From a virus: a stretch of DNA of 64,000 bases. The stretch is from positions 11,226-75,225 of the IMG/VR virus record IMGVR_UViG_3300045988_101878; one strand, 5' to 3'. The notes beneath the pieces were generated by a model. That model worked only from the letters and a program-made list of their open reading frames with translations. It did no database searches and had not been told where the DNA came from. Made by a program: the position numbers and the translations under genes. Positions 8,027-54,804 of this stretch are shown piece by piece; the first letter of the stretch is position 1; each line of letters begins with the position of its first letter.

Positions 8027-9377
8027 TCCGGCTGAACCTGCTCCGTTAGTGCAACAAGCTGCGGGGCAGGTGCCTGTGCAGGGGAATGTTGGACAGCCTC
8101 AGCAGGTTGTTCAGCAAGCTCCTCAGCAGCAGAATGTGGTGCAGCCTGGGCAGGTGGCTCAGCCTCAGCAACCTGTTAATGTGTTCAGCGGTGGCTCTGG
8201 ACGACCCACTACGTTTGAGAACATGCCTACGACTGTAGGATGGACTCCTTTCGGCAACCCTGTAAATGAGGGGAGCAAGGCTCAGCAATCGTGGCAGACG
8301 ATGAATTCCAAAAACACGGAAGGAAGAATGCCAGCCGCTTACGCTCTTAACTCTAAGCCTTTGGGTGGTGTTGATTTGGGTGCTGTTGGTGGTGATAAGG
8401 GTGTTACTGCTGTGTTTGAGAGGGACGATAGCCAAAGGGATGGTGGTTTCTTTAAGTGGCTTGGCGGTCTTGCCAAGAAGCGACCGGGCAGACGCGAGGG
8501 AGAAACCGACGAAGAGTATGACGAGCGCATGACAAGGAACAATATGCGCATTGCCACTCTTGCGGACGCTATCCGACACATGGGCAATATCTACAATACG
8601 ATGAAGGGCGGTCCTTCTCAGCAGTTCAACAGCCCTGCGGCTGTGTATGAACAGCAGATGCAGCAACGCAAGGCAGAAAGAAAGTCGAAATTGGCGGCAG
8701 CAGCAGAGAGTGCGTATAAGGATGCACAGTTGCAGCTCAAGATGGATGCAGCCAACACGGACAAGGCTTACAAGGCGATGAACCTTGAGCTGAAAAAGGA
8801 TGCAGGCAGACGTGCGGACGAAAGTGCTAAGGCTATGAATGAATACCGCAAGGGACAGCTTGGCATCCAGGAGGGCAACCTTAAGCTTTCGGAAAAGAGA
8901 CTCGGGGAAACTATGCGACACAACAGAGCTTCGGAAGGTCTTAGCGCAAGCAGACTTGCTTTATCGAGAACCAAGGCAAATGGCGGATATAAAGGAAGCG
9001 GCAAGGGTCTCGGTTCTGTAACCAACCTTTCTACTCCATACGGACACTTAAACCGCAAAAAGGACCTTAATACCATTGAGAAGAGACAGATTTTGGATTT
9101 TTTGTTTAAAAATGGATTTATTACCGATGCAGCTGCAAAAAAATACACAAATGCTGTTGATGAACGAGAGCGTGGCGCAATACTTAACGGTTGGATAGGT
9201 TGGGCAGCTAACGCAAAGGGAACAAGAGCAGGAAAATTCAGAAAGATGCTTATAGACCACTACGGATATTCTCCTACAAATACCGTTGGCGGTGGCAAAG
9301 CTCCAGCTGCTCCTGCAAAGAGCAAGAACAACGCCAAGCCAAAGAAAGGCGGTTGGGCGTCGGGTTTTAAACTTTAA
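8001..9377 (+). CDS. Gln/Pro-rich protein with a basic coiled-coil C-terminal half
   Basis: The track ORF starts at TTG 7992, and the first ATG is at 8001. It overlaps the upstream gene by 26 nt. The N-terminus contains QQAPQQQNVVQPGQVAQPQQ repeats. Confidence 0.5.
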   Translation: MVQRRNPSNPAEPAPLVQQAAGQVPVQGNVGQPQQVVQQAPQQQNVVQPGQVAQPQQPVNVFSGGSGRPTTFENMPTTVGWTPFGNPVNEGSKAQQSWQTMNSKNTEGRMPAAYALNSKPLGGVDLGAVGGDKGVTAVFERDDSQRDGGFFKWLGGLAKKRPGRREGETDEEYDERMTRNNMRIATLADAIRHMGNIYNTMKGGPSQQFNSPAAVYEQQMQQRKAERKSKLAAAAESAYKDAQLQLKMDAANTDKAYKAMNLELKKDAGRRADESAKAMNEYRKGQLGIQEGNLKLSEKRLGETMRHNRASEGLSASRLALSRTKANGGYKGSGKGLGSVTNLSTPYGHLNRKKDLNTIEKRQILDFLFKNGFITDAAAKKYTNAVDERERGAILNGWIGWAANAKGTRAGKFRKMLIDHYGYSPTNTVGGGKAPAAPAKSKNNAKPKKGGWASGFKL

Positions 9378-9389
9378 TTTGAAAAATAT

Positions 9390-12300
9390 ATGGCAATAGA
9401 TAGAAGTAAGTTGCAGAGGATGTACAAGCTTATGGCTGACAACGGCTATACCCAGGACTATAATACATTCGAGAAGAAGTTTACTGGTGACAGCAATTAC
9501 GCCAACAGAAAGGCTGTGTACGACCTGTTCACAAAGAATGGTGCTGACTTGGGAGGCTCGTATGAGGAGTTTATGCGCAAGTTGCAGAAGCCAAGAGCGA
9601 CAAAGCCTCAGCAGCAACCAAAGACCGCATTAGGCAGGGCACAACAGAGCGTGGCGCAACAGAAATGGGGAGGCTATGGTGGTGCTGTGACTCCAATGCA
9701 GAATGACAGCGAGCTTGTGCGCGGATTGAAGAATGCGGACGCGGCACAGAGGTTGCAGGTTCCCGTGAGCTATGCAAAGCCGGGTGCTGTGAAACAGATG
9801 GTGAAGCAGACAAGGGAGAGACAGCATGTCGTTGGGCAGAATGTGGAGCAGGCAGGACGTAGAACCATGCAGCCATTACGTGAAGAAGAGAAGAAAAACA
9901 GAACACCCGTTTTTGATACTGGCAACAAGAATCTGAACCAGTATGTGGTGAACACGCAGGGACAGATGGAGCGTCAGATGATGGACAGCGGACGTGAGAT
10001 TGCAGGTGATCATCTTGGAGACTATATCTCCTACAATATCCGCAATGAGTTTGACGCTGCTGCCAAGAGAGGACTGGAGGCTGAGTCAGCCTTGAGCAAG
10101 GCTTCACCATTCGCCTCTATGGTAGCTGGCAAGGCTTACAACGATGCGCTTGACCCCGATATGCTTATAAAGAATCTCTCCAAGAAAGCGGAGAGCGATA
10201 TGGCAAACATTCTCTCAGACCCGAAAGTGCTTGAGAATATTGGCGTTAAGGCGGCTGCCTATGGTGTTGACCCAGAGGAATATGTAAACAAGATATTCGC
10301 TCCTGGCTTGCAAGCAAAGATAGCCGAGGAGTTTGAGAAGAGCGAGCTGAGCCGTAATATGCCTAAGAGTACGGCAGAATACATCATCCGCGGTGTTAAT
10401 GACTCGATGATTGGTACTATCTTGTCAATGAGCATGATGTCAAAGAAGCAGAGACAGTATGCTCAGCAAGGAATGGCAATGACCGATAACGGCGAGAATC
10501 CTGATGTTAACCCGAATATGGGCGCAAGAGTGGCACGCGGAACATTGAGCTTTGTTGCTGATGCTCCTGTATTTGGTGCTGCTGGAAAGGCAGGTGCTGC
10601 TGTTGCAGGAAAGGTATTCGGCAATGGAGTGGCACAGATGGCGAGAGTGGCAAATTCTTCTTTGGGTGGACGTATTGCTCGTATGGCAGGTTCTGGAATG
10701 GTGAGCCAAGGCGTTACTGGTGTGCTTTACGGTTCGACGAATGCGGCTGTACAGAACTACTCTACTGGCGACGACACTTCTATTGGCAATACCGTGAAGC
10801 TTATGACTATGGGCGGCGTTTCGGAAGGCGCAAGTTGGGCCACTATGGGTGGCATTGGCGGTGCTGTTGGAGGAAGCCTGTATAATGTGAGTGGTTTTAA
10901 GCGCATTCCTGCCAAGGTGTTCCAGATAGCGATGGAAGGCGTTGGTATGCACATGGGTGGTAATGTTGCCAAGATGATAGAGGGTCATGATACCGACTGG
11001 CTGAGCGTAGAGGGGAACCTTGAGGCTTGTGCCAATGTTGTAGCCTTGAAGCTGACACACGCAAGACTGCCTAAGCGTTATGCGAAGGACGGCAAGAAGG
11101 AAAGCTATCTTGGCATGGTGGCGAGAAATCTTTATAATCTTACTGTCTCGGACAGACAGAGAACTGCCCTTGGTGGATATACTTTCACCAATGAGGAGAA
11201 AGAACAGCTGTTCGGGAGCGCGAATGCGCCAAGGAGAAAAGAATATACCTACGGATATGATAAGTATGACGTGCCTTTGACAAGAAGTGAAAATCTTATT
11301 GATTGGGCATTGAGAACCAAGAAGACAACAGCCAGAGGAAAGGGCGAGGAATCTTATAATGGCACGGACGCTGAGTTTGTGAAGACTGCCTATGACGAGA
11401 TAATGGCTGACAATACCATTCCTTGGGACACAAAAGCTAAATTCTCGGCTTTGGTTATGGGAACTGTTCCTTCGGCACGTCCGATGATGGACCATATAGC
11501 GATAGAGCGTGACGAGAGAGGAGCGTATGTGGGTGAATATAGCCTTTATGGAGAGTTGCTCTCAAAGAACCGCTATAAGACAGCCGACGAATACGTTTCA
11601 ATCAAATACAATCTTGGGGCGAAGAAAGAAAACCAACGTTTGAGTAATGCCTATGGTGCAGCTCAGATAAAGGACGAGAAGGCGGCACAAGAAACATTGG
11701 AGACTGTAGCTGAGACGTTTGGCTTTACTGCTGAACAGTTGAAGGCAGCTATGGACAAAGACCCGTTGAAGCGCAGCGAGGAGGAACAGAATGCTTGTGT
11801 GGCTCTGAGAAAGGCTTATGAGGGAGAGCAGTTCCCGGAAGGAACGTTGCATCCCGACCAGTCGCAGACAGAGGGCAAGGACGTGGTTGAGGAGAATAAC
11901 CTTGGCACGGAGAATCCTAACAACGAGGCTGTGGCTGAGGTGCTGAACAACATGAATAATGCCGAAAAGGCGTTTAATGCAGCCTTGGAAAGCAACGATG
12001 TGTTGAAGCAGGAGTATGAGAGACTGGCAAAGGAGGGTCTTTCGGAACCTCAGATATACATGGAGCTGTTTAATTCGGGACTGACGCAGGAACAGCTTGC
12101 ACCTTTTGCCGACTACATCAACGCCAAGGCTAAGGCTGTGGGCATGTATCGCGGAACTGAACAGAAGATTGCTGAGACCGTGCAGAAGCATGTGGAGCAA
12201 TGGAGCTACAAGGGCGAGCTGAATGGCGAGAAGCAAGAGGGCGGTCAGATGGTGTTCGTGAAGGACAACAAGGGCAGACTGCTGATTGTTGGAGCGGGCG

Positions 12301-15300
12301 ATGTTGCCTTTGATAATGATGGCAGAGCGAGAGAAAGCGTTGGCGACATGCTTAGCGTGCTTGATGCTGAGAAGGGAGAAATGGACTTCGTGAGCGTTAA
12401 GGACGTGAAACTGGAGCGCACTGTGGCAAGCGAGGAGTATGCAAAGGAATACCAGGAACTGTTGGAGGTTAAGAACTCTGAGGTGTATGCTCAGAATGAG
12501 CAGCAAAAGCAGATGGAGAATGCGGCAGGTGGTGTGACACCTGAAGGTGGAAAGCCGGAACAGCCGATAACAGAGCAGGGCAACGCAGAGACTACCGTGC
12601 AGACTGGCGAGGCAAACAAGCCTGTGCGTACATTTGCCGATGGCTCACCTGTGCCCATGACAAAGGATTCGAAGGGTCGCGAGACTGCTGCCTACTCGAT
12701 GATGACTCCAGAGCAGGGAGCCGAGTGGATAGAAAAGACATTCGGAGAGGATGCTGAGGCTGTGGCAGACGGTAAGATTGAGCGAGCCAAGAAGGATTTG
12801 AGCAAAGCCGAGAAGATGGATATAGACATGACCGCTGACGATGCGGACGTACTGGAGGCTAAGACCAAGAAGAAGGCTGCTATTGAAGCTGCCCAAAAGG
12901 AGCTTGAGCTTTACACCAACATCAAGATGGCGATGGTGGAGAAGAAGGTGAAGGCTACGATGGAGAAAGAAAATACTGTAGGTGAGGTAGATAGTGCAAG
13001 TCGTGTTAGTGACGCCGTGCGCGAGAAGTTCGAGAAATCAAAGAAGATTCCCGGACGACGTGGTTCTATCACTCTTCCTGATGGAACTAAGATAACTGGT
13101 CAATACTTTTATGGCGAGGTTTCAGGACTTACACCTTCGCACGATCCGTTTAATGACTTTAAGCAGAACGAGGGATTCCCAGTTAATGAAGACGGCTCTT
13201 CCTCAAACTCACGTTCTTACAAAGACAAGGAGTCGCGTCTGTTTACAGAGAAAATTGGCAGAGACTTTGGCGGGCAAGCACTAAAGAATGTGCCAGTTGT
13301 GCAGGATGGTATTCTGTTAAGCGGAAATGGCACGACTATGGGTAAACAACTTGCGGAACGCTATGGTACTGACGGCAAGTATTATGAGAGCCTAAGTGAA
13401 AACGCAGAAGGCTTCGGCTGGACTCCAAAGCAAATTGAAGAGGCAGGCTTTAAGGGTACTGTATATTTTGTACCCGACAAAAAGATGCCACTTACAAGTA
13501 AGACATTTGACCTTTTCAACAAGCAAGAGACAAAGAGCATTGGCAATACAGAGCAGTCGGTAAAGAATGCCAAGGTGTTAGACACGGACGAGATTAGTGC
13601 CATCGTGTCGGAGATAGAAGGAAGTGGCAGTCTTGACGCATTCTTTAACAATCCTACTGCAATAAACTCGTTGCTAAAGCGTTTAATTGATAAGGGCGTT
13701 ATTGGCTTGAACGAGGTAGCCGGATTGCGCGAGGGCGAGAACAAACTTTCGGCTTCGGGCAAGGACTTTGTGAGAAACCTGCTGTTGGGCAGCGTGTTCT
13801 CGGAGGACACTATCAGAATGATGGGTGCAGACGCAGGTTTGAAGTCGAAGGCTCTGAATGGTATACGTGCCGTGCTTGACAATATGAAGCTTGGCGACTA
13901 TGCCCTTAGAGGCGAGATTGACAAGGCTGTGCAGTTGGTATATGAGGCACGTCAGCAAGGTGGCGACGTGGATGCTTATTTGCGCACTCCTGCCATGTTC
14001 GGAGAAAATGCGGCAGATAGATACGACCCAATATCACAGGCTATAGCTCTTGCGCTTGACGGCAAGGCTGAGGACTTCCGCGATTTGATGATGGCATACA
14101 ACCGCAATGCGGCACATTATGCCGATGCTAATCAGTTGGACGTGTTCGGCGACCGACCTACAAAGGAGGAGTTCATTAACGAATTTTTGAAACTTAGAAA
14201 CTGGAAGAACTATGAAACAAGACGTTCAGAAAATGAAGGAAATGGCGATGTTGGCGGCACTCAAGGAAGTGAACCAGAAACGTCAGGAGGAAATGAACAG
14301 ACAGAAGGAGAAGGAGTAACGCCTACTGGTGCAGGCGCGGGTTCGCCTATGGACCCAGACAGATTTGACCGAGCTGTTGAGCAGCTAAAGACTGCCAAGG
14401 GTGAGGAGCGTGAACGTATACTCGACCAAATGGAAGAGTATGTGAATGAGTTTGCCGAGAGCAATGGATATGACAAGCCAGTTGTGCTGAGAACAAAGAA
14501 GGACTTGGCGGATGCGGCGAAAGACCCAGACGACAAATTCGCAATAGAAAATATGCCAGATGATGCCCATAATCCTGGTTATTATGAGGATGGGAAAATC
14601 CATATATATCTTGAAGGCAGTAGAGGTTCTAAAGAGTTGCGCGAGACATTTGAGCACGAGTCGGTTCATGCTGACAATGATGCAGACCCTTCAAGAGTGG
14701 AAATGCTCATTTCTTCCGTAAACGAGACTGGCGAGATAACATTTGAAGAATTAGAAAAAGTTGTTGAGACTTTATCTAACTCAGACCGTTATTCATACCT
14801 TGCAGAAAAGCTGGATTACAACGATGGATTGCGCATGTTGGCAGATGAAGCCTTAGCGCACCTTGTTGCACATGCTTATAAAAATGGTATAGATGCGATG
14901 TCGGATATAACTAAGAATTCTACATTACTCTATATAGCAAAAAAATCATTTAAATTTAGAGAAAATGAAAGACAGCGACAAGAACGAGAATCAATTAGTG
15001 GAAGTACTGAGCAACAGCGGAAGAAAGTCGATGTTCAGCCTACACAAGAGCACAGTGGAACTGTGGGAGAAAATAATGAAGGAAAATCCGGAGTTGTCAC
15101 AGATGCAAGCATTGGGACAGGCATTCGTGATAATGAAGGAGAAGGAGAAACAATAAATGACAGAAGAAGAAAAGAAGGACTTGCAAAGAGTGGAGATAAG
15201 ACACTCGAGCGGAAGAATCTCGATGATGTATCTACCGAAGAAAACGGTGGAGCATTGGAGGGAGATAAGGAAGGCAAACCCGAAAATGACAATGGAGGAA

Positions 15301-18300
15301 GCCCTGATAGAGACATTCAAGCAGGAGAAGAACAGCGAGAAGTAGAAGAAAAAGCAATATTTGAACAGAGAAAGGCTGAATATCTTAAAGCCTTGAAGGA
15401 AGGTAAGACTGGCAAAGAACTTGAAAATGCGAAATTGCATTACAAGTTTTCTTTCTTGGACTACCAAAATATAATGGGCGTAACTGACGCTGAGTCGCTT
15501 GAAAAATTATGGAAGAGGGAGCTTGAATCGGCAAAGGATTCTAATGGTATTGGAAGTGAAGAGGCTCTTGCCATTCTTCCTAAGAAGGAAGAGAAAACGT
15601 TTGATCCGATTGGTAAGGCTGCGGAGAACTACAAGAAAGACCATCCTTTGACAGATGAGGAGATTAGGAGTAGCGATGTGGACGACATTGCAAAGGATAT
15701 GGCTGTAGATTATCTGAATGGCGAGGTGACGGATGATTTGCATCGTGCCGTTTATGAGAGCATCTATGAAAAGGTGAAGGATGCGAAGATGAAAAACGCC
15801 ACTAAGCAAGCGGATAATAAAACAGAAACTACCGAAACTCCTAATGTGGAAGCCTCAGCAAGCCCTATTGAGGGAATGAAGAATGCTGCCGAGAAGTTTG
15901 CTAAAGAGAAAGAGGCTGCTGTAGAAGCTATGGGCGAAGTGAAGAAGCCTCAGCAAAAGGCTGACGATGCAGCTGTGGAAGCGTCGAACAAGAAGGTTAA
16001 CGACCTTTGGAACGACTTGCTGAAAGCAGGCAGAGAGGATTTGTCGGCATCATTCATCGGACTTAACGCAAGACAGCTTGAAGTGCTGCCTAAACTTGTG
16101 AGTGCAATGGCAGAGAACGCTTACCTAAGAATAAAGAGAGGTATGCACAATCTTGAAGACGTGGTAAAAGAAATGCGCAAGGAGTTTGCTCCAGCAGCCC
16201 AGGTGTTCAAGAAGGAAGATGTGGATGCCATCTACGAGCAGATGATGAACATTCGCTATCGTGACGGCGAACAACGCATGAGCTTGAAGGAATGGGCAGA
16301 CTACTACGAGAAGATTTCACCTAAGCACAAGGAGGAACTTGTGGGCGACTCCAAGGAGGCAGAAGAGAGAAAGATACGCGAGAAGAAATTTATAGACAAA
16401 GTGAACCTTCGTCTTGGTTTCGGACAGAAGATTAACGGCATCGTAGAGCTGAGAAAGATGGCAGAGGAATGTGGACTGAAAGACGTGAAGGACACGGACT
16501 TGCAGGAACTTGCCGAGACAGCCATCGTACAGAGAGCGAGAGGTATCGCTTCTTCGGAGTCAACCAATAATACCGAGAAGTTCAAACGTATAAAGAAACT
16601 CTACGAGAATCAGCCGAGCCTTAATCAGCGTGACTCAGAGAGAGTGATGAAGCAGCAGTATTCCACACCTGCTCCTTACGCATTCCTTGCAGACATGTAT
16701 GTGAAGGCAGGAATTGAAGTAAAGAGCGCATTGGAGCCAAGTGCCGGAAACGGAATGCTGACAATAGGCTTGCCTAAGGATGCGGTACATGTGAACGACA
16801 TCGACGCACAGCGACTTGCCAACTTGCAGAGACAAGGCTTCAAGAACGTAACAAGCCAAGACGGAACACAGCCGTTTGCGGACAAGGACGTGGACGTGGT
16901 TGTGACAAACCCACCATTTGGAAGTGCCACACCAAGGGATTATGACGGTTATACTATCTCTTCATTGGAGGGACAGATGGCTATCAATGCCTTGGAGAGC
17001 ATGAAAGACAACGGTCGTGCAGCCATCATCATCGGCGGCAAGACGGAATACGCCAAGAACGGAAGTCTGAATCCAAAGGATAAGGCTTTCCTTGGTTATC
17101 TCTACAGCCACTATAATGTGGAGGACGTGATAAACGTGGATGGAAGCCTGTACGCAAAACAGGGCACAACATACCCGACACGCATTATATTGATTAACGG
17201 ACGACGCTTTGACGAGAATGCCTATCCGCCAGTTAAGGACAAGGCAAGAGCGGAAGCCGTGAAGAGTTATGACGAACTTTATAAAAGAATAAACGATGAT
17301 ATACTACGAAGTGGAAGGATGGATTCTCCCGTCGGAGAAGGAGGAGAAGATGCTAACGCAAAACCTAATAGACCGAGCGTTGCTGACGCTAATGAAGAGG
17401 GAGTACGAGCAGGAGGAAACGGAGGAGGCGAACAAAAGCCTTCAGTTCGTACTGGAGGAGTACATGACAAGACTGCCGAACCAGTTTCCGACAATGTATT
17501 GGGGACAGAAGGAGGAACCAAGCCAGGAGAAAATGGAGGACTTCCTGATGGAGCTATTGGAGCAAACGGAGCAGGGACAGAGCCTACTTCAAGCAAGGAA
17601 CCAACCACTGGAACCAACAAGCAGCGAGGAAATGAACCAGGAGGAAATGGACGACCTAACACTCAGCCAAATGCTGATGAAACTACCGATGCCGGGAACG
17701 GAGGGAGACCACGGGGACAACTGGAGCGGGTGGACAAACCCGTACGTGGACTAAGTGCCGAAAAGGTTGCTTATACGCCAAGAAGTGAAAACCCGTTCAC
17801 TCTTAAAGCTGTTATGCCTGCCGACCAACAAGAGGCAGTTAATAAGAACCTCGAAAAACTGGGTGATGCAGACCAATTCTTGGTTGACGAACTGGGCTAC
17901 AACGATAAAGCAGACCTATACGCACATCTTGCAGCAGAGCAAGTAGACTCAGTAGCTCTCGCTTTGCAACAGGCAAAGAAAGGCAATGCCTTTATCATCG
18001 GTGATATGACAGGTATTGGCAAGGGTAGACAGGCAGCTTCGCTTATCAGATACGCCAAGAACCAAGGACAAGTGCCAGTATACTTCACAAAGACAGCAGG
18101 TTTGCTGAGTGACGTATATCGTGACTTGGTAGACATAGGTAGCAAAGAATTGAGACCGTTTGTATTTGGAAGCGCAAAAGAAGCTGCCATTACAGACGCT
18201 GACGGAAACGTAGTATTTGCACTACCTTCGAAGAATGAAGTGAAGCGCGTGCTTGACTATATAGAAAAGAACGGAGAACTACCAAAGGAGTATGATTACG

Positions 18301-21300
18301 TTCTGACGACATACAGCCAAGTAAGCAACGGCGTATATGAGTTTGACGAGAATGGCAATCGTAAGGAAAGGAAATTAGCCAAAGGCAAAAAGTTTGGTGC
18401 AGCAGCAATCAGCGGACAAGCCCGACGTGACGCTATAGAAAAGCTCATGAAGAACGGCTATCTGATATTGGACGAGAGCCATACAGCAGGAGGTGACAGC
18501 GGTCAAGGCAACTACTTCCAGCACATCATTCAGAAGGCAAAGAACGTGACCTTCTTCTCTGCAACCTTCGCAAAGCGTCCCGACAACATGCCAATCTACG
18601 CGCTAAGAACGGCAATGAACCAGGGAGGAATGAAAGCATCCGACTTGATAGACGCCGTGAAGCGTGGAGGAGCCACACTACAGGAAATCATGAGTCAGGC
18701 GCTGACCCAATGCGGACAGATGATACGTCGCGAGCGAGACATGACAGGCGTGACTATTGACTGGAAAGCCATTGACGACCCCGAAGTTGTTGCCGAACAG
18801 CGCGAGCAGTATGACAGCATCATCGGTCTGTTCAACGACATCATCAACTTCCAAAGAACCTATGTAAGCGCATACGTAGACAGACGTAATGAAGAACTTG
18901 CAGAGGTGCAGTCGTCGATGGGCATAAAGCGTGGCACAGAAGCCTTGGGAATAAAGAACCAACCGTTTGCAAGCAAGGCATTCAATACTGTGCAACAAGT
19001 GCTTCTCTCGCTTAAAGCAAAGTCGGCAGCAGAAAGAGCTATTGACTACTTGAAGCAAGGCATGAAGCCTGTGATAGCATTGAACAATACCAACGAGTCG
19101 CAGACGGGTAACCTTGCGCTTGGCGAAGAAATGGACGCTCCCGACTTGGGCACATCACTAAAGAAAGGACTTGAAGGTACGCTTCGCTATACGAGCAAGA
19201 ACGCTAAGGACGAAAGCGAAAGCGGATATATTAATCTGAAAGACTTGGGTGCAGATGCCGTTGAGGCATACCATGCTCTTGAAGAAAAGATAAGAAAGAC
19301 AAGTACCGGACTATCGCTCTCGCCTATCGACGTTATTAAGAACGAACTGACAAAGGCAGGGTATAAGGTAGGCGAGTTGACTGGTAGACAGACAGAGTTT
19401 GTGTATAACGAGAACGGCACGGTAACGAAGGTGAAGCGTGCGGACACAGACAAGAAGAAACTTGCGAGAGAGTTTAACGACGGACAGATAGACGCGCTAA
19501 TCTTGAACAAGAGTGCGGCAACTGGTATATCACTCCATGCTTCAAGCAAATATGCCGACCAGAGAAAACGAGTTATGATTGTTGCCCAGCAGCAGCTTGA
19601 CGTGAACGATGAGGTGCAGATGCGTGGACGTATAGACAGAACGGGACAGGTGGCAAGAGGCGCATACGAATACGTTGTGTCGCTTATCCCGGCAGAGCAG
19701 CGACTGTTGATGATGTTCAAGGCAAAGCTGAAATCATTGGACGCAAACACCACTTCTTCACAGAAGAGCAAGTTCAATGAAATGGAAGTAGCCGACATTA
19801 CCAATAAGTACGGAGACAAGGTGGTGAAGGAATACATGGCAGAACACCTTGACTTGTATGCACGTATGGCAGACCCATTCGGATGGGAGAAATCTTATGG
19901 AGCAGACTTATCAACAGTAGACCCACAAAAGTTGGTTTCTTCTTCTGACGGCATGAATAGTGAGGCTGGAGGCGACGCTAACAAGTTGCTTGGCCGTATG
20001 GCTTTGCTGAAAGTGAAAGAGCAAGAGAAGATGTTGCAAGAGATAGGCGACCTTTATGCAGCCGAGATACAACGTCTGAACGAAATGGGCGAAAACGACT
20101 TGGAGATAACAGAGTTGCCTTTGAAAGCTAAGACCTTAGACAGGATTATTTGGAAGGAAGGTACAGAACCAGGCGGCGACAATGCCTTTGCCGACAATAC
20201 TTATATAGAGAAGGTGAATATGGCTGTACTGAAAAAGCCGATGAAAGCGGAGGAGGTAAAGAAAGCTCAGGACGGACTCACGGGCGGCAAGTCGTGGGAC
20301 GAATACCGCAAGGAGAAGCTAACCGCTGCAAAAGAATACTTTGACAAGAAGATAGCCGAAGCTACTCAGAAATACGAGGAGCGTGCCGTTAAGGCTGCAA
20401 CAAAGGTAAAGGAGAAGTATATCAAGGAAGCAAAGAAGGGTCAGAAAGAAACTGGCGTGAGCGACGAGCAGATTGAAAAGACTGCTGGCTATCAGTACGA
20501 AAACGCCTATAACGATGAGAAGACTAAGCTTGACGAAGTGGTGAAGAACCTCAAAGCGAAGTATGGCGTATTTGAGCGTGCGCTTGAAACATTCAACACA
20601 GAAGACGCATTTGTACTGCCAACAGACATGAACAATCCCGCTGAGTTGAGCGGATTCGGCAACAGCTATGGCAGACTGATAGACATAAAGATAACTGACA
20701 ACTTCTCGCCAAACGCCTCAACAATATCGTTCGCCACATTGGACGGACGAAGAAAGATAACATTCCCTATAAACGGAAAAGCAGGACTCGGAATCGACAA
20801 GGTTGATGTTATAGAAATTATTGACAGGCAGACAAGGCAGGCATCGTCGTTGGGTGACAAGAATCTACGTGTATTGAGTATGGATGCCTCCAACTGGGAC
20901 AAGCTGACAAGCAACGAGAGCCGTAAGGACGGATATATCATTACCGGAAACTTGCTGCAAGGCTTGATTGACACCAAGGCAGAGTTCTTGGGTGCTCAGT
21001 TAGTGAAATATACAACAGATACAGGTGAAGTCAAAACTGGTATTTTGTTATCTGGTAATGTAAAACTGAAAAACCTTGCCAACGAGAAGCCTATTAATAG
21101 CGTAGCTGAAAAATTTGAATTGCCATCTAACAAGGGTGGCATAACAGAGGTGACATCTTCGGACGGAGACGTGAAGATAGAGCAAAGTTCAGTTTACACA
21201 AGAGAGGAATCTAACTATAACATCCGTGTTCCAAAGAGTAACAAAAAGGGAGGCAAGTATTTCCTTGATAAAGAGCTGCTGCAAATGGTTGTTGGCGGTA

Positions 21301-24300
21301 ACTTTGAGACAAGAGGAAACACGATGTTTGCCCAGATAAAGACTGGAAAGCTAAAGGATGTACTTGACAGACTTTCGGAGCTTGGCGTAAAGGTAAAGGA
21401 AGAAAGCAAGGTGCATTACCGCATGGAGCTTGGCAACACCTTCTCAGACAGCAAGGAACACTTTGACGCTGTGAGAGACAGAGCTGTGGAGGAGAAAGGA
21501 ATCGTTATGCCTAATCTGAATAAGGAGAAGGTGAAGGTGGTAGAGGTTGAGAAATCTCCCTTTGGTGACAATATTGAAACTTCTTTAAAAAATGCCAGAG
21601 AATGGGCAAAAGAAAACCTTGTAACAACGGGAAAGACAGAAATGCCTATTATGCGCGATGGTACATCTTATACAATCAGCAAAAGGGCTGTTGAAAAATA
21701 TCTTTCAGAAAGTGCTGTTCGTAAAAGTGAGAATCTTGACATTCATCTTTCGGTACTTCCCAAACTTACAGATGTTGTCCATGAGAGCATTGAAGCAGAG
21801 ATACACCCGGATTACAAAAAGGGTGAAGACGGAATACGTGGTATTGAGAATGGATATGGTGAAGGTATTTTAGTACATAGACTTTATGGCGCAGTAGAAC
21901 TGGACGGTAAGATGTATCGTGTTAAGACTACTATGCAAGAGTTCAGAGGTGGGGAAGAAAACAAACCTCATAGCTATGAGGTAACAAAAATAGAGCTGCT
22001 TGACTCCCCTGGAAAGCGAGAAAATCCCGACAGACCACCTTTGGTTTCATCAAACAACTCTAAAAATATAACGTCGGAAGGTTCCGAGAAAGCGAACGAA
22101 TCCGACAGTCTCCCTTTGAACAGTGCAACCAACGGTTATATTTCAACTGCAAAGTTACTGCAAGGAGTTGAGAAATCCTACGATTCGGGCAAGAAATTGC
22201 TTGATGAGAGTAAAGATTTAACAGATGGGGAGACTTTCTTTAGAAAAGAAGGCGATGGTGTTGTAACACCTGAGAAGACTTCGAATGCTATGAGCGAGCG
22301 TATCATCAAGACCGTTGAGAAGGTTGCCAAGAGAACTGGAGGCAAGGTGAAGATGGTGAACTCGGTTGAGGAGATTGAGAACCCGAAGGTGCGCAAGGAC
22401 ATAGAGAACGGCAAGCAGGTGACTGGCTGGTATGACGAGAAGACGGGCGAGGTGCATCTGTATATGCCGAACATCCATGACACGTATACCGCGGAGAAAA
22501 CCGTTTGGCACGAGACTGTAGGACACAAGGGCATGAGAGGTTTGCTTGGAGATAAGTTTGACTCCTACATGAGAGACCTTTGGATGGACTTGGACAACCC
22601 TATCAATGCTGAGCTGAGAGCTTATGTGAAGGAAAAAATGAACATGAATCACCTTGGATTCTATGACGCTATTGAGGAGTTTATCGCCAAGAGCGCAGAG
22701 GACGGAAAGGGTGAGCCTGGCTTCTGGAACTACATTAAGAATAAGGTAACAGATGCCCTGCATGAGATAGGCTACAGAGTTTCGCCTAACGTGAAGGACG
22801 TGAAGTATATGCTGTGGCTGGCGAAGAACGTGCAGAAGCATGGAGACAGTCCGCTGTGGAAGCTGAGAGCTGAGGCTGTGAGGTGGAAGATAGAGCATGA
22901 GAAGACGGAGTACACGAAGATTGAGGGCGGCGAGCTGTATGACAACGACGGCAAGAGCCATGACTTCGAGAGCATGAGCCGCGAGGAATGGCTGGAGGCA
23001 ACGGACGGAGAGATACACTACCGCACGACTCCAAGCGCTGCTACCGCTTTGGACAGATACCATCATGCCCTGGACCGTCATAGCTATATGGCTACGGAGG
23101 CTTTCATGGACAATATGCTCTCGTTGAAGAAACTCATGGAGGCTATTGATCCATCTATCAGAAAGATAGAAGATGTGGCAAGCTCGATGAACCCATATCT
23201 GATGCAGAATATCACGGAGGGCAAGATGAGCGACAAATCCAAGCTCTTCGAAATACGCTATATGGACCCGCTTAGCAAGGCTATGTCGAGCGTGTTGGAC
23301 AGCTTCGATGGCAAGAAGGTGGAGGACAGAATAAGGAACTTCAATCTGTATATGATTAGAAAGCATGGATTGGAGAGAAACCGTGTGCTGTTCGTGAGAG
23401 ACAAGATAAGGGAAGAACGAAAAGTGAAGAGTGAAGAATCCAATAGTATTGATGCTTTGGAGACTGCTTGGAAGGGCGAAAAATACGACCTTAGAAAGAA
23501 GCTTGACTCGGGACAGATAGACTTGAAGGAGTACTACCGTCAGATGGACGAGTGGATTGTAACGAACTTGGACAAGGACTTTAAGGCTGAGGAGCATGAC
23601 TATTCGGGTATGCACGGCTTGCAGGGTATTGCAGACAAGAAAGCAGCTTATGATGATGCCGGAGCTATTGACGAGGTAATGAGCCAGGAGGCGAGCATGG
23701 AAAGCATGAAGAAAGGCTCAGTTGCCGACTTCTGGAAGAAGGTGAAGGCAGCTACTGATTATTCTGTAAATTCGGACTATGAGAGTGGACTGATAAGTCA
23801 AATTACACACGACGGAGTGTTGGGCATGTTTGACTGGTATGTACCGTTGAGAAAGTTTGACGAGGCTACCGCTGAGGACGTATACGGATATGTGACAGAA
23901 ATGGGCGACCCAAGCAACTATATCGGCACGACGCTGATGAACGCCAAGGGACGAAAGAGCCTGAGCAATGTGGAGATATTGGCACAGATTGGCTTAATGG
24001 GCAACCGTGCGATAAGAAACGGAGGTCAGAACACTATAAAGCAAGCCTTTGCGCGATTCGTGAGAAACAGCGGAGAGCAGAATCTTGTGAAGGAGACAAA
24101 GGTTTGGGTAGAAAAAATAGGCACAGACAGAAACGGTAACGACATTTGGGAGGAGGCTTATCCGAAGATTCCCGAAGGAGCCGAAGCTGATGAAGTTGCA
24201 GAAATTGTGGATGCCTTTGAAACGGACATGAGGGCCAAGCAAGCTAAGGGCGAGGCAAAGAGTCTGAGCAACAGCACGGACATCGGCTTCAAGTTCCAAA

Positions 24301-36780: not shown

Positions 36781-37560
36781 TTATTCTTTACCAAACAACA
36801 GACTGAAGACCTGGCGTCCTTTCGGAGTAATCAGTGTCTGCATACCTGCCCACTTATCGCCTCCAGCGCACTCCTTTATAATGAACAACTCGCCTGTATA
36901 TCTGGCGTATGGTTTTATTTTGCCTTTAACATCGCGGTAGACATATTGCGCGTCGAGGAGTTTGCTGATAAAATCATTCTGCTTCAAGCCAATCTCTTTT
37001 GCGGTGTCGCGGAAGTTGGTGTTAAGCTTACGGTCAACAAGACGGTCGAAGTACTCCACCTTTGGCTTCTGCTCCTCAATCTTCTCCACCAACTTCTGAC
37101 GTTCCTTTTCTTCCTCAATCCACTTTTCGGCTCGCTTGATAGGGTCGGAGATTTGATAAGAAGGTGTCGCCGCCTGGCTTATCTGCTGTTCCATAGCATT
37201 GAAGGCCTTGATGTATTCGAGTTTGAAGGCAAGTGCTTTTTCTCCAGTGAATCCCATTGCAAGCAAAGTGAAGCCGTCGCGGTTCATAACGAACATGGGT
37301 ACTTTCTTCACGCCACCTCCAACAGGCATTGGCTGTTCTACCTCCACAAGAGCAAACATCTTTGTAAGTTGCTGACTAACAACGAAAGCCGATTTTTCGG
37401 CTGTCGTGTTAAGTAAATTTCGAATGGCATCTAACACATGCTTGTGTTCCTTACCAAACTTCTTTGCCACCATCAAGCTTGTTGTTAACGCCTGTCCGTT
37501 CGTGCCCTTATACACAAGCTCGAGGCTTTCAGGGTTCTCGAAATTCTTTTTCTCTTCCAT
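36781..37560 (-). CDS. Rha-family regulator fused to a KilAC/ANT antirepressor C-terminal domain
   Basis: 259 aa. GQALTTSLMVAKKFGKEHKHVLDAIRNLL matches the Rha pattern. The C-terminus FRDTAKEIGLKQNDFISKLLDAQYVYRD is KilAC-like. Confidence 0.8.
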   Translation of the reverse strand: MEEKKNFENPESLELVYKGTNGQALTTSLMVAKKFGKEHKHVLDAIRNLLNTTAEKSAFVVSQQLTKMFALVEVEQPMPVGGGVKKVPMFVMNRDGFTLLAMGFTGEKALAFKLEYIKAFNAMEQQISQAATPSYQISDPIKRAEKWIEEEKERQKLVEKIEEQKPKVEYFDRLVDRKLNTNFRDTAKEIGLKQNDFISKLLDAQYVYRDVKGKIKPYARYTGELFIIKECAGGDKWAGMQTLITPKGRQVFSLLFGKE

Positions 37561-53564: not shown

Positions 53565-54707
53565 TCAGATTTTATCCTCAATAGCATCGAAAGCAGAACG
53601 AACGTCACGGCTGAGTGTGCGTGCGTAACGCTGTGTCTGACGAAGATTAGCATGACCAAGTACCTTCGAGACTACATTTATAGGCATACCCTTTGAGAGG
53701 AACATGGTGGCTGCTGTGGCACGTCCCATGTGGCTGTGAAGATTCTCGACACCAACCATTGAGCCTATGACCTTGAGAAAGTCATTGTACTTTTGGTTGG
53801 TGATTTTGGGAAGACGGTTGTTGTACTTCTTTAGTATCTCCACTGCTTGGGGGAGGAGTTGGAGAACAAAGTCAACATCTGTCTTGACTCGGCGGTCGTG
53901 GTAGAAGTATTTACCGTCAATCAGGTCGCATTCGTTGAAATCAAATGCCATGAGGTCGGAATAGGCGAGTCCTGTGTAACACTGGAAGAGGAAGAGGTCA
54001 CGCGCCTTGACGAGGTGAGGAGTGGCGACGGTGAGGGATCGGATAGACTCGAACTGCTCGATGGTGAGGCAGTCAACGTACTGCTTGTCGCCTCGAGGTA
54101 TTTTAAAACTAAGACGACGATACGGATTGTCCTGCACAAGGTTGTCAATGACAGCGTCGTTGATGAAAAGCTTCAGATACTTGTGGTAGTTGTAGATGGT
54201 AGCCTGTCCAATCTCGCGAGTATGCAAGTATTCGTCCATCGCACGAACGTTGGCGACGGTAAGGTCGGCGAAGGAGACTATTTTGCCCCAGGAACGAAGG
54301 AAGCGAGTAAAGACACGGTAGCGGGTCTTTGTGCTTTCAGACACACGACGCGCAGCTGTGCGCTGCTCGCAATAGGTAGGGAAGTCTATCACCTTGCCAG
54401 TCGATTCACCTTGGAACATACGTGTGAGCAAATTGAAGTCAAAGCTATCTTCTTCATCGTAGGCTTTGTTTACGATTTTGTTAGCCTTGACTCTGATAGC
54501 TGTCAGACGTTGATTCAGCTCTTTTCGGTCGGGATGGCGAATAATCTTACACTCACGGCTATCCCATTCGTCGGCAGACACCTTAATGCCAGTGGCAAAG
54601 TATTTCTGCTTGCGGTTCATACTAAAGCGAATTTCAACAGAGCCTTGCTTTCCGCTCTGTGCGGCGTGCTTTCTGTCATAAACAATGTTAAATCTCAAAA
54701 TTGCCAT
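53565..54707 (-). CDS. int: tyrosine site-specific integrase
   Basis: I trimmed the track ORF to MAILRFNIVYDRK. The C-terminus HSHMGRATAATMFL...VLGHANLRQTQRYA carries the R...H.....Y catalytic pattern. Confidence 0.85.
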   Translation of the reverse strand: MAILRFNIVYDRKHAAQSGKQGSVEIRFSMNRKQKYFATGIKVSADEWDSRECKIIRHPDRKELNQRLTAIRVKANKIVNKAYDEEDSFDFNLLTRMFQGESTGKVIDFPTYCEQRTAARRVSESTKTRYRVFTRFLRSWGKIVSFADLTVANVRAMDEYLHTREIGQATIYNYHKYLKLFINDAVIDNLVQDNPYRRLSFKIPRGDKQYVDCLTIEQFESIRSLTVATPHLVKARDLFLFQCYTGLAYSDLMAFDFNECDLIDGKYFYHDRRVKTDVDFVLQLLPQAVEILKKYNNRLPKITNQKYNDFLKVIGSMVGVENLHSHMGRATAATMFLSKGMPINVVSKVLGHANLRQTQRYARTLSRDVRSAFDAIEDKI

Positions 54708-54760
54708 AATGCGCATAAATTTTAAAATGTTCACGATGTTTCGGGGAAACAAACACGCAT

Positions 54761-54804
54761 TTGGTAATACACTTTTTGACGGTTGGTAATACATTGGTAA
54801 TACA
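54761..54804 (+). repeat. three direct TTGGTAATACA repeats upstream of int (arm-type site candidates)
   Basis: Copies lie at 54761-54771, 54783-54793 and 54794-54804. Related TTGGTAACACG lies at 55094-55104, TGGTAATA at 55652-55659, and an inverted TATTACCA at 55374-55381. Confidence 0.55.

Follow-up and report, generated by a model that had tools for sequence, protein, structure and literature searches.

Candidate overprinted genes within linkers of the giant polyvalent-protein gene in a Prevotella/Segatella phage

Background

Overlapping genes are a textbook feature of tiny phage genomes, and annotation pipelines systematically discard them in large ones. The locus described here raises the question of whether two short open reading frames (ORFs), which lie in the +1 frame within a hydrophilic linker of a giant phage gene, are genes in their own right or a by-product of the composition of that linker. 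They occur in the IMG/VR virus record IMGVR_UViG_3300045988_101878, of which we analyzed a stretch of 64,000 nucleotides (positions 11,226 to 75,225 of the record; hereafter the window, to which coordinates refer unless another contig is named). The host gene codes for a polyvalent protein, and the two ORFs, ORF1 and ORF2, are copies of a single small unit, which we term the module:

9390-26327, + strand: giant polyvalent-protein gene, host of the nested ORFs; frame 0, 5645 aa (from the ORF listing)
14935-14964, + strand: +1-frame stop (TAG, 14935-14937), A7 run (14939-14945) and A/T-rich leader of ORF1
14965-15156, + strand: ORF1, module copy 1; 63 aa, ATG start, frame +1, type 1; apparent recombinant mosaic and the atypical copy
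15157-15345, + strand: ORF2, module copy 2; 62 aa, ATG start, frame +1, type 2; canonical member of the family

Based on the comparison of homologous sequences, we propose that ORF1 and ORF2 are very probably genuine, conserved genes overprinted in the +1 frame. The pair would represent two copies of a small coding module laid over a hydrophilic linker in a temperate phage of Prevotella/Segatella. Frame 0 would act there as a spacer that must remain open and whose sequence is free to drift, while frame +1 would specify a folded protein of about 62 residues under purifying selection.

Results and discussion

The tandem modules and their homologues

The preliminary description of this locus, made from the letters of the window, placed the two ORFs in the +1 frame with the TAA of ORF1 directly abutting the ATG of ORF2. 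The sequence listing bears out these coordinates and this junction, and likewise the last +1 stop followed by the A7 run, which begins 1 nt past that stop and lies 20 nt ahead of the ORF1 ATG. The A/T-rich stretch that it noted before this ATG is also real, with 82% A+T over the 40 nt 5' of ORF1 as against a mean of 53% for the giant gene. Its manual counts of paralogy are reproduced exactly by tblastn, which finds 41.9% of 62 residues (26) identical between the two ORFs in frame +1 and 32.8% of 64 residues (21) in frame 0; the corresponding BLOSUM62 local scores are 118 and 68. Tandem Repeats Finder missed this duplication, as identity between the two copies is only about 60%.

The tandem two-copy state was observed only in this phage and in its near-identical closest relative, IMGVR_UViG_3300045988_131962, and the ORF1 form was not recovered from any contig beyond these two. 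The 3' part of ORF1, about 100 nt, is identical to the module of another contig (P0003; compared with L137 3001-3276), whereas its 5' 66 nt differ from that module at 33 positions (~50%), which suggests that ORF1 is a recombinant mosaic. The window itself is not identical to the closest relative (loci L001, L004, L151 and L223): segments of the giant gene range from 96% to 100% amino acid identity between the two, pointing to mosaicism among very close phages.

The segment of the giant gene neighboring the module is carried by at least 118 IMG/VR contigs, 26 of them with the module; over the different scans, homologues came from at least 118-138 IMG/VR contigs. Together with loci from metagenomes, genomes and the European Nucleotide Archive (ENA), the IMG/VR contigs yielded 66 instances of the module, comprising 34 distinct stretches that fall into four sequence types. 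All 34 are intact in frame +1, with a conserved stop and with either their own ATG or a fusion to an upstream nested piece (the N-piece, below), and every one is nested in an open giant frame save for one decayed remnant. At its two ends, ATGACAGAAGAAGAAAAGAAGGACTTG… and …AGCGAGAAGTAG, the module is near-invariant in DNA while the cores are about 50% different, a combination of invariant termini and divergent cores that suggests cassette exchange. In about a third of the module-bearing phages the nested ORF has a long form of 88-91 aa, in which the module is fused to MKQDIQAKKEMAMLAALRELNRKREEE….

Frame 0 is open at every fully covered homologous locus except in three lineages, namely the decayed remnant (L113), the split lineage of the free-standing homologue P0022 discussed below and fragmented ENA contigs of the L110 type. 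The remnant lies at L113 2241-4854 on a 105 kb bacterial contig (ERZ28436041 NODE_40), where it is flanked by bacterial genes; a 570-aa Kinase-PolyVal ORF is followed by a frameshift, a stop and an internal duplication, and an intact type-C module ORF (P0009) survives. We considered this stand-alone module as proof of an independent gene and set it aside as weak evidence, since it sits within a decayed polyvalent-gene remnant.

A larger nested system

The ORF1/ORF2 pair is part of a larger nested system, which includes a short ORF further upstream and a second nested gene in another hydrophilic linker:

14212-14319, + strand: N-piece, nested ORF in frame +1; 35 aa, MKQDVQKMKEMAMLAALKEVNQKRQEEMNRQKEKE
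14320-14934, + strand: structured domain coded in frame 0 only, HExxH motif FEHESVHAD; found between N-piece and modules in this phage
17296-17754, + strand: second nested gene, frame +1, in another hydrophilic linker; 152 aa, acidic, pI (isoelectric point) 4.2

The N-piece corresponds to the N-terminal helix of the 88-91 aa long-form protein of other phages. It was found, always with an ATG, in 127 of 132 loci, and the ATG is retained in all 127 although frame 0 could take TAC for TAT at this position. None of its 62 distinct sequences has an internal stop or a frameshift. The same holds for the 74 distinct sequences of the 152-aa ORF, which starts with methionine in 100 of 100 instances and whose products share ~70% amino acid identity in frame +1 as against 47-50% in frame 0. 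This ORF carries no annotation as to family or fold.

The HExxH domain evolves under ordinary frame-0 selection (dSN 0.35-0.55 and dNN 0.05-0.23 in the sliding scan; rates defined below) and has no Pfam match. It is absent from the long-form loci, where the N-piece continues straight into the module, and in one locus (L135) its homologue stops exactly at the start of a free-standing small gene. These relationships are consistent with a nested gene in which the module is an optional C-terminal domain, the N-terminal helix, coded at 14212-14319, being present in almost all relatives. In the window phage an inserted frame-0 domain would have split the nested gene, leaving the module with its own ATG and in two copies. 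The preliminary description had overlooked this wider system, as it had the restriction of the tandem state to the phage and its closest relative and the mosaic make-up of ORF1.

Selection and codon usage in the two frames

We estimated selection with a home-made OLGenie-type estimator in the ss13 geometry (method from PMC7531306), where dNS is the rate of changes that are non-synonymous in frame 0 and silent in +1, dSN that of changes silent in frame 0 and non-synonymous in +1, and dNN that of changes non-synonymous in both. For the module, dNN is 0.198, dNS 0.523 and dSN 0.255. The resulting dNN/dNS, which gauges constraint on the +1 product, is 0.38 (interval 0.26-0.52; Z=-5.55, P=2.8e-8), and the frame-0 dNN/dSN is 0.77 (0.50-1.20) and not significant. 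These rates support the earlier suggestion that purifying selection acts on +1, with the amino acid sequence of frame 0 essentially free and the frame kept open. Among copies that diverged inside the giant gene, the within-type dNN/dNS is 0.25 for type 2, to which ORF2 belongs, and 0.30 for type B. A control flanking domain showed the reverse pattern, with dSN 0.40, dNS 0.12, dNN 0.08 and a frame-0 ratio of 0.20.

The other two nested ORFs behave like the module. The N-piece has dNS 0.50, dSN 0.17 and dNN 0.16, giving a dNN/dNS of 0.32 (0.20-0.49) and a frame-0 dNN/dSN of 0.94, and the 152-aa ORF has a dNN/dNS of 0.38 (Z=-7.8, P=5e-15) and a frame-0 dNN/dSN of 1.46. For comparison, the authors of OLGenie report 0% false positives at a ratio <0.4 with P<=1e-6 (PMC7531306).

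A scan of the whole gene (9363-26267) was run on frame-0 protein alignments, hence without ascertainment on frame +1. Frame-0 dSN is mostly ~0.3-0.7 along the gene, with a few highly conserved windows at 0.23-0.29; only at 14205-14384 and 17265-17744 does it fall to 0.12-0.19 while dNS rises to 0.36-0.50. Over 15045-15344 the scan is uninformative, because linkers of other phages that are not homologous fall into the same columns of the frame-0 alignment, and the dedicated module alignment was used there instead. Other open alternative-frame stretches were considered as nested genes and rejected, as they show the ordinary frame-0 pattern: 9400-9630, 11056-11277, 13096-13281, 17755-17943, 21625-21870 and 24679-24894 in +1, and 10562-10882, 18497-18757, 23876-24136, 24248-24568 and 25052-25291 in +2. 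They act as negative controls for the scan.

Codon usage points in the same direction. The synonymous codon-usage score in frame +1 is 0.17 for ORF1 and 0.21 for ORF2, close to the in-frame median of 0.18, as against -0.21 and 0.00 in frame 0, which are values typical of out-of-frame readings. Pooled over the nested regions, the score is 0.100 in +1 (in-frame 95% range 0.052-0.25) and an out-of-frame-like -0.079 in frame 0. With the +1 protein fixed and synonymous coding randomized, the probability that frame 0 is open is 0.007 for ORF1, 0.002 for ORF2 and <5e-5 for the 152-aa ORF. As frame 0 is nonetheless open nearly everywhere, it appears to be selected for openness and not for sequence.

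Predicted fold and the relationship to ribbon-helix-helix repressors

The AlphaFold2 model of ORF2 (pLDDT, the per-residue model confidence, 85.3) is a beta-hairpin followed by two helices (H3-7, E9-15, E21-27, H28-40, H46-61), and that of a 91-aa long form (pLDDT 86.8) has an N-terminal helix (H2-36) followed by the same hairpin and two helices. The nested proteins have no match in Pfam, NCBIfam, PHROGs or PADLOC. A profile search against PDB sequences gave a best E of 0.6 with no ribbon-helix-helix (RHH) protein among the matches, and Foldseek searches of PDB and BFVD with the two models returned nothing at E<=0.001 and no RHH at a useful score, the best match being a non-significant one to a fragment of RuvA.

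These results bear on the identification in the preliminary description of both ORFs as Arc/MetJ-like RHH units, from which it raised the possibility that they control the antirepressor of the phage. Such Arc/Mnt-like DNA-binding repressors would account for the small size and the strand-helix-helix order; the register with Arc that had been drawn by eye is recovered by hhalign over 21 columns, ORF2 and the long form are basic (pI ~9), and the antirepressor gene at 36781-37560 on the - strand is confirmed as coding for a Rha + KilAC/ANT protein. However, hhalign assigns a probability of 3.4% to the match with Arc and of 0.1% to that with CopG, and the database and structure searches above are devoid of RHH matches. 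Moreover, the monomer models show a two-stranded hairpin where RHH proteins have a single N-terminal strand that pairs with its counterpart in the dimer, the distant homologue P0022 is acidic (pI 5.0) and most related phages lack the module. Thus, membership of the nested ORFs in the RHH superfamily is not supported, and we regard a repressor of this kind as quite unlikely; the proposed regulatory target exists, but nothing links the nested ORFs to it. Our best guess is that the nested protein is a small oligomerizing protein with a binding role, working together with or in parallel to the giant protein at an early stage of infection.

Observations that weigh against conserved function

Several observations count against the proposal that the modules are functional overprinted genes. 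The ratio for the alternative frame in the control domain is itself biased below 1 in +1 (0.65, interval 0.48-0.84; 1.19 in +2), so that the value of 0.38 for the module is less extreme than it appears; in addition, the sequences are phylogenetically related, and hence not independent, and the bootstrap was over codons only. Translation of the +1 frame is itself an inference, and no match to a family or fold in the searches listed above, nor any contextual link, points to a function. Most relatives carry the neighboring segment without the module, and in some the module has been cleanly deleted (…QQKDSEK*), which marks it as dispensable. Damage is apparent in a few copies, with the NPE loop and the usual stop missing from P0015, a P to S change in P0008 and a Y to D change at three loci. 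Finally, ORF1 is an outlier at seven near-invariant columns (K7, D8, L9, I14, R15, I21 and Y25), and its 5' third is unique to it; it may be a decaying or neo-functionalized extra copy.

Some of these points would be expected if the +1 signal were a fossil, inherited from genes that were independent before the large genes fused, with the DNA now serving only as linker. The codon usage and the free-standing homologues fit such an origin, as do the frequent deletion of the module, its few damaged-looking copies and the atypical ORF1. Yet the within-type ratios of 0.25 and 0.30 come from copies that diverged in place, NS sites showing the most events, the 34 distinct nested copies are all free of acquired stops and frameshifts, and the ATGs are retained. 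We therefore consider it very unlikely that the coding signal is solely a relic.

How much a single genome can tell

An alternative of a different kind is that frame +1 is open simply because the linker is poor in T at codon position 2 and has no product, the protein-like look and the paralogy of the two ORFs being accidents of purine-rich DNA. A hydrophilic linker will seldom yield +1 stops, because the first T of such a stop occupies frame-0 codon position 2, where T specifies hydrophobic residues; T is found at this position in 13% of the codons in the module linker versus 23% gene-wide. The giant gene holds eight +1 stretches of at least 62 codons without a stop, and with the frame-0 peptide fixed and synonymous codons randomized the probability that +1 is open is 0.05 for ORF1 and 0.42 for ORF2. 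Nor is there a codon-phase signal within the in-window pair itself (differences 25/22/25). Openness of the +1 frame within one genome is accordingly weak evidence, and the significance comes from the homologues. In these, composition leaves unexplained the halved frame-0 synonymous rate combined with a neutral-level rate at the +1 wobble sites, and it likewise fails to account for the conserved ATGs and stops in 34 distinct sequences, the gene-like +1 codon usage, the free-standing homologue and the confident AlphaFold models, all of these signals being absent from the other open alternative-frame stretches. The compositional explanation is thus largely refuted and we hold it to be highly improbable.

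Expression of the nested ORFs

Returning to the proposal that the modules are overprinted genes, no short form, N-piece or 152-aa ORF has lost its ATG. Over the 40 nt that precede the nested ATGs the A+T content is 62-82%, and in-frame stops lie 0-9 codons ahead of each ATG. A/T-rich initiation contexts that are independent of a Shine-Dalgarno sequence are typical of Bacteroidota, and the conservation of the ATGs in such contexts suggests internal initiation on the giant-gene mRNA as the simplest way in which the small proteins would be made. No Bacteroidota -7 motif (TAnnTTTG) was found within 200 nt upstream of any nested ATG. Translation of ORF2 would probably be coupled to that of ORF1 by termination-reinitiation at TAAATG. 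Tryptic peptides predicted from the +1 frame are ISMMYLPK, TVEHWR and MTMEEALIETFK for ORF2, and SMFSLHK, STVELWEK and ENPELSQMQALGQAFVIMK for ORF1.

The preliminary description had also raised slippage at the A7 run. Slippage there of the ribosome or RNA polymerase would fuse the N-terminal ~1,848 residues of the giant protein to the module as an alternative C-terminus. For all the suggestive placement of the run between the last +1 stop (1 nt away) and the ATG (20 nt away), this is barely credible. An A7 is peculiar to this phage, the run being A5 or interrupted in homologues sharing the upstream region (L005, L006, L011, L013, L007 and L008), and it is absent and irrelevant in the long-form loci. 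These keep the ATG, as does every short form although a fusion product would have no need of it, and the free-standing homologue starts on its own, in a 17-nt overlap with the stop of the gene before it.

Free-standing homologues and the origin of the nested genes

A profile search run exhaustively over 1.84 billion representative proteins recovered family members only. Among them is the distant homologue P0022, a 65-aa product of a free-standing gene (hhalign probability 96.8%, E=3e-10):

L133 1064-1261 and L135 3729-3926: P0022 small gene; junction and +1 phase as for the module

The gene starts 17 nt before the stop of an upstream polyvalent gene. The C-terminus of that gene has its homologue in the part of the window just 5' of ORF1, and a separate gene containing LPD38 lies 3' of the small gene. 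Frame 0 in this lineage has exactly two stops, 14 nt past the start and 12 nt past the end of the small gene, and their relative positions are the same in L133 and L135, two independent assemblies made from different samples. As frame 0 is still open between these two stops, the direction of the split is ambiguous.

The 152-aa ORF similarly has a free-standing homologue, the 126-aa P0131 (L138 6001-6381), in Segatella copri GCA_032490455.1. It lies between an HU-like gene and a HicA-like gene, with genes for a TraG/T4SS (type IV secretion system) coupling protein and a DDE transposase nearby; given these conjugation and transposase genes, the region looks like an integrative conjugative element (ICE).

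The gene-like +1 codon usage and the free-standing homologues together favor the view that the small genes pre-existed and were then read through, and they fit the earlier idea that captured genes were put to new use as a linker. The small genes would then be the older reading, through which the giant gene came to extend. Beyond this we advance, tentatively and with somewhat less than even confidence, the possibility that the giant genes grew by fusing neighboring large genes through off-frame read-through of intervening small genes. These would have persisted as functional nested cistrons (the N-piece with the module, and the 152-aa protein) whose DNA doubles as disordered linkers. If so, a single mRNA would give rise to a 5,645-aa injected or early protein and several small partners, and linker-embedded genes may be a general and overlooked feature of giant phage and ICE genes.

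The host gene and its phage

The giant protein contains Pfam domains for an MTS methyltransferase, a Strawberry-notch-like helicase (AAA_34/ResIII/Helicase_C_4), LPD3 and LPD38. It fits the polyvalent-protein class in combining many unrelated conflict-related domains with LPD domains in one polypeptide, in a phage context. Elsewhere in the window are two further phage genes:

37718-39709, + strand: P22-like portal
53565-54794, - strand: Bacteroidota-type tyrosine integrase (Arm-DNA-bind_5)

The presence of these and of the Rha+ANT antirepressor indicates that the phage is temperate.

The sources of the homologues are labeled Prevotella or Segatella copri. At one locus (L132 4980-5201) a type-C module within a giant ORF belongs to a metagenome-assembled genome labeled Lachnospiraceae; the contig is probably a mis-binned phage, since every other named source is Prevotella or Segatella. 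In the GenBank phage collection, neither the region nor the module nor the 152-aa ORF was matched by any DNA or protein. Public gene catalogues (tables L110, L136 and L137) list nested +1 ORFs of 39, 61, 64, 91 and 153 aa. The same catalogues hold some antisense ORFs as well, but not the giant ORF, probably because products >5,000 aa are left out. Nested proteins of this kind are thus already in the databases, unrecognized, as 'hypothetical protein [Prevotella sp.]'.

Comparison with known systems

Lambda Rz1, inside Rz in the +1 frame, and the phiX174 genes B inside A and E inside D are well-known embedded phage genes. Like them, the nested ORFs described here are complete small ORFs with their own start and stop, on the same strand as the host gene and in a shifted frame, with both readings apparently kept by selection. 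Unlike in those cases, the host protein is polyvalent and 5,645 aa long, the overlap falls on a sequence-unconstrained linker as opposed to a functional domain, and at least two separate linkers hold nested genes. Moreover, codon usage here points to the small genes as the older reading, and a role in lysis or replication is not indicated. Same-strand embedded genes in general are classical in phages (reviewed in PMC8227390).

In relation to RHH repressors such as P22 Arc and Mnt, CopG and MetJ, the modules share a length of ~60 aa, a strand region followed by two helices with a short loop, and the phage setting. They differ in having no detectable sequence or fold relationship to these proteins, in the predicted N-terminal beta-hairpin and in the 35-residue N-terminal helix borne by the long forms. 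With the benchmark overlaps of OLGenie (PMC7531306) they share the ss13 geometry, a dNN/dNS well below 1 and suppressed synonymous change in the reference frame, the statistical signature being as clean as that of the benchmark genes. In most of those cases the reference gene is strongly constrained, whereas here the reference frame is nearly neutral (dNN/dSN 0.77-1.46).

The nested genes occupy the seemingly featureless, low-complexity linkers of one of the largest phage gene classes. This suggests that the "linkers" of giant multi-domain genes can code in another frame, and that giant genes may assemble by overprinting across intervening genes. It further suggests that phages of gut Segatella/Prevotella copri may carry unannotated small proteins, conserved in >100 genomes, with novel folds as predicted by the models.

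The host protein conforms to the polyvalent proteins of Iyer et al. 2017 (PMC5512222) in uniting unrelated domains in one polypeptide, namely a methyltransferase, a SNF2/Strawberry-notch-type helicase, LPD3 and LPD38. Overlapping or frameshifted reading frames are not mentioned in that work, nested genes in linkers are not part of the description of the class, and in the literature we found no report of nested genes in polyvalent proteins. What is new at this locus, in comparison to both the classical embedded genes and the described polyvalent proteins, is that several conserved cistrons are concealed within linkers of one giant gene, with the host frame as the unconstrained reading.

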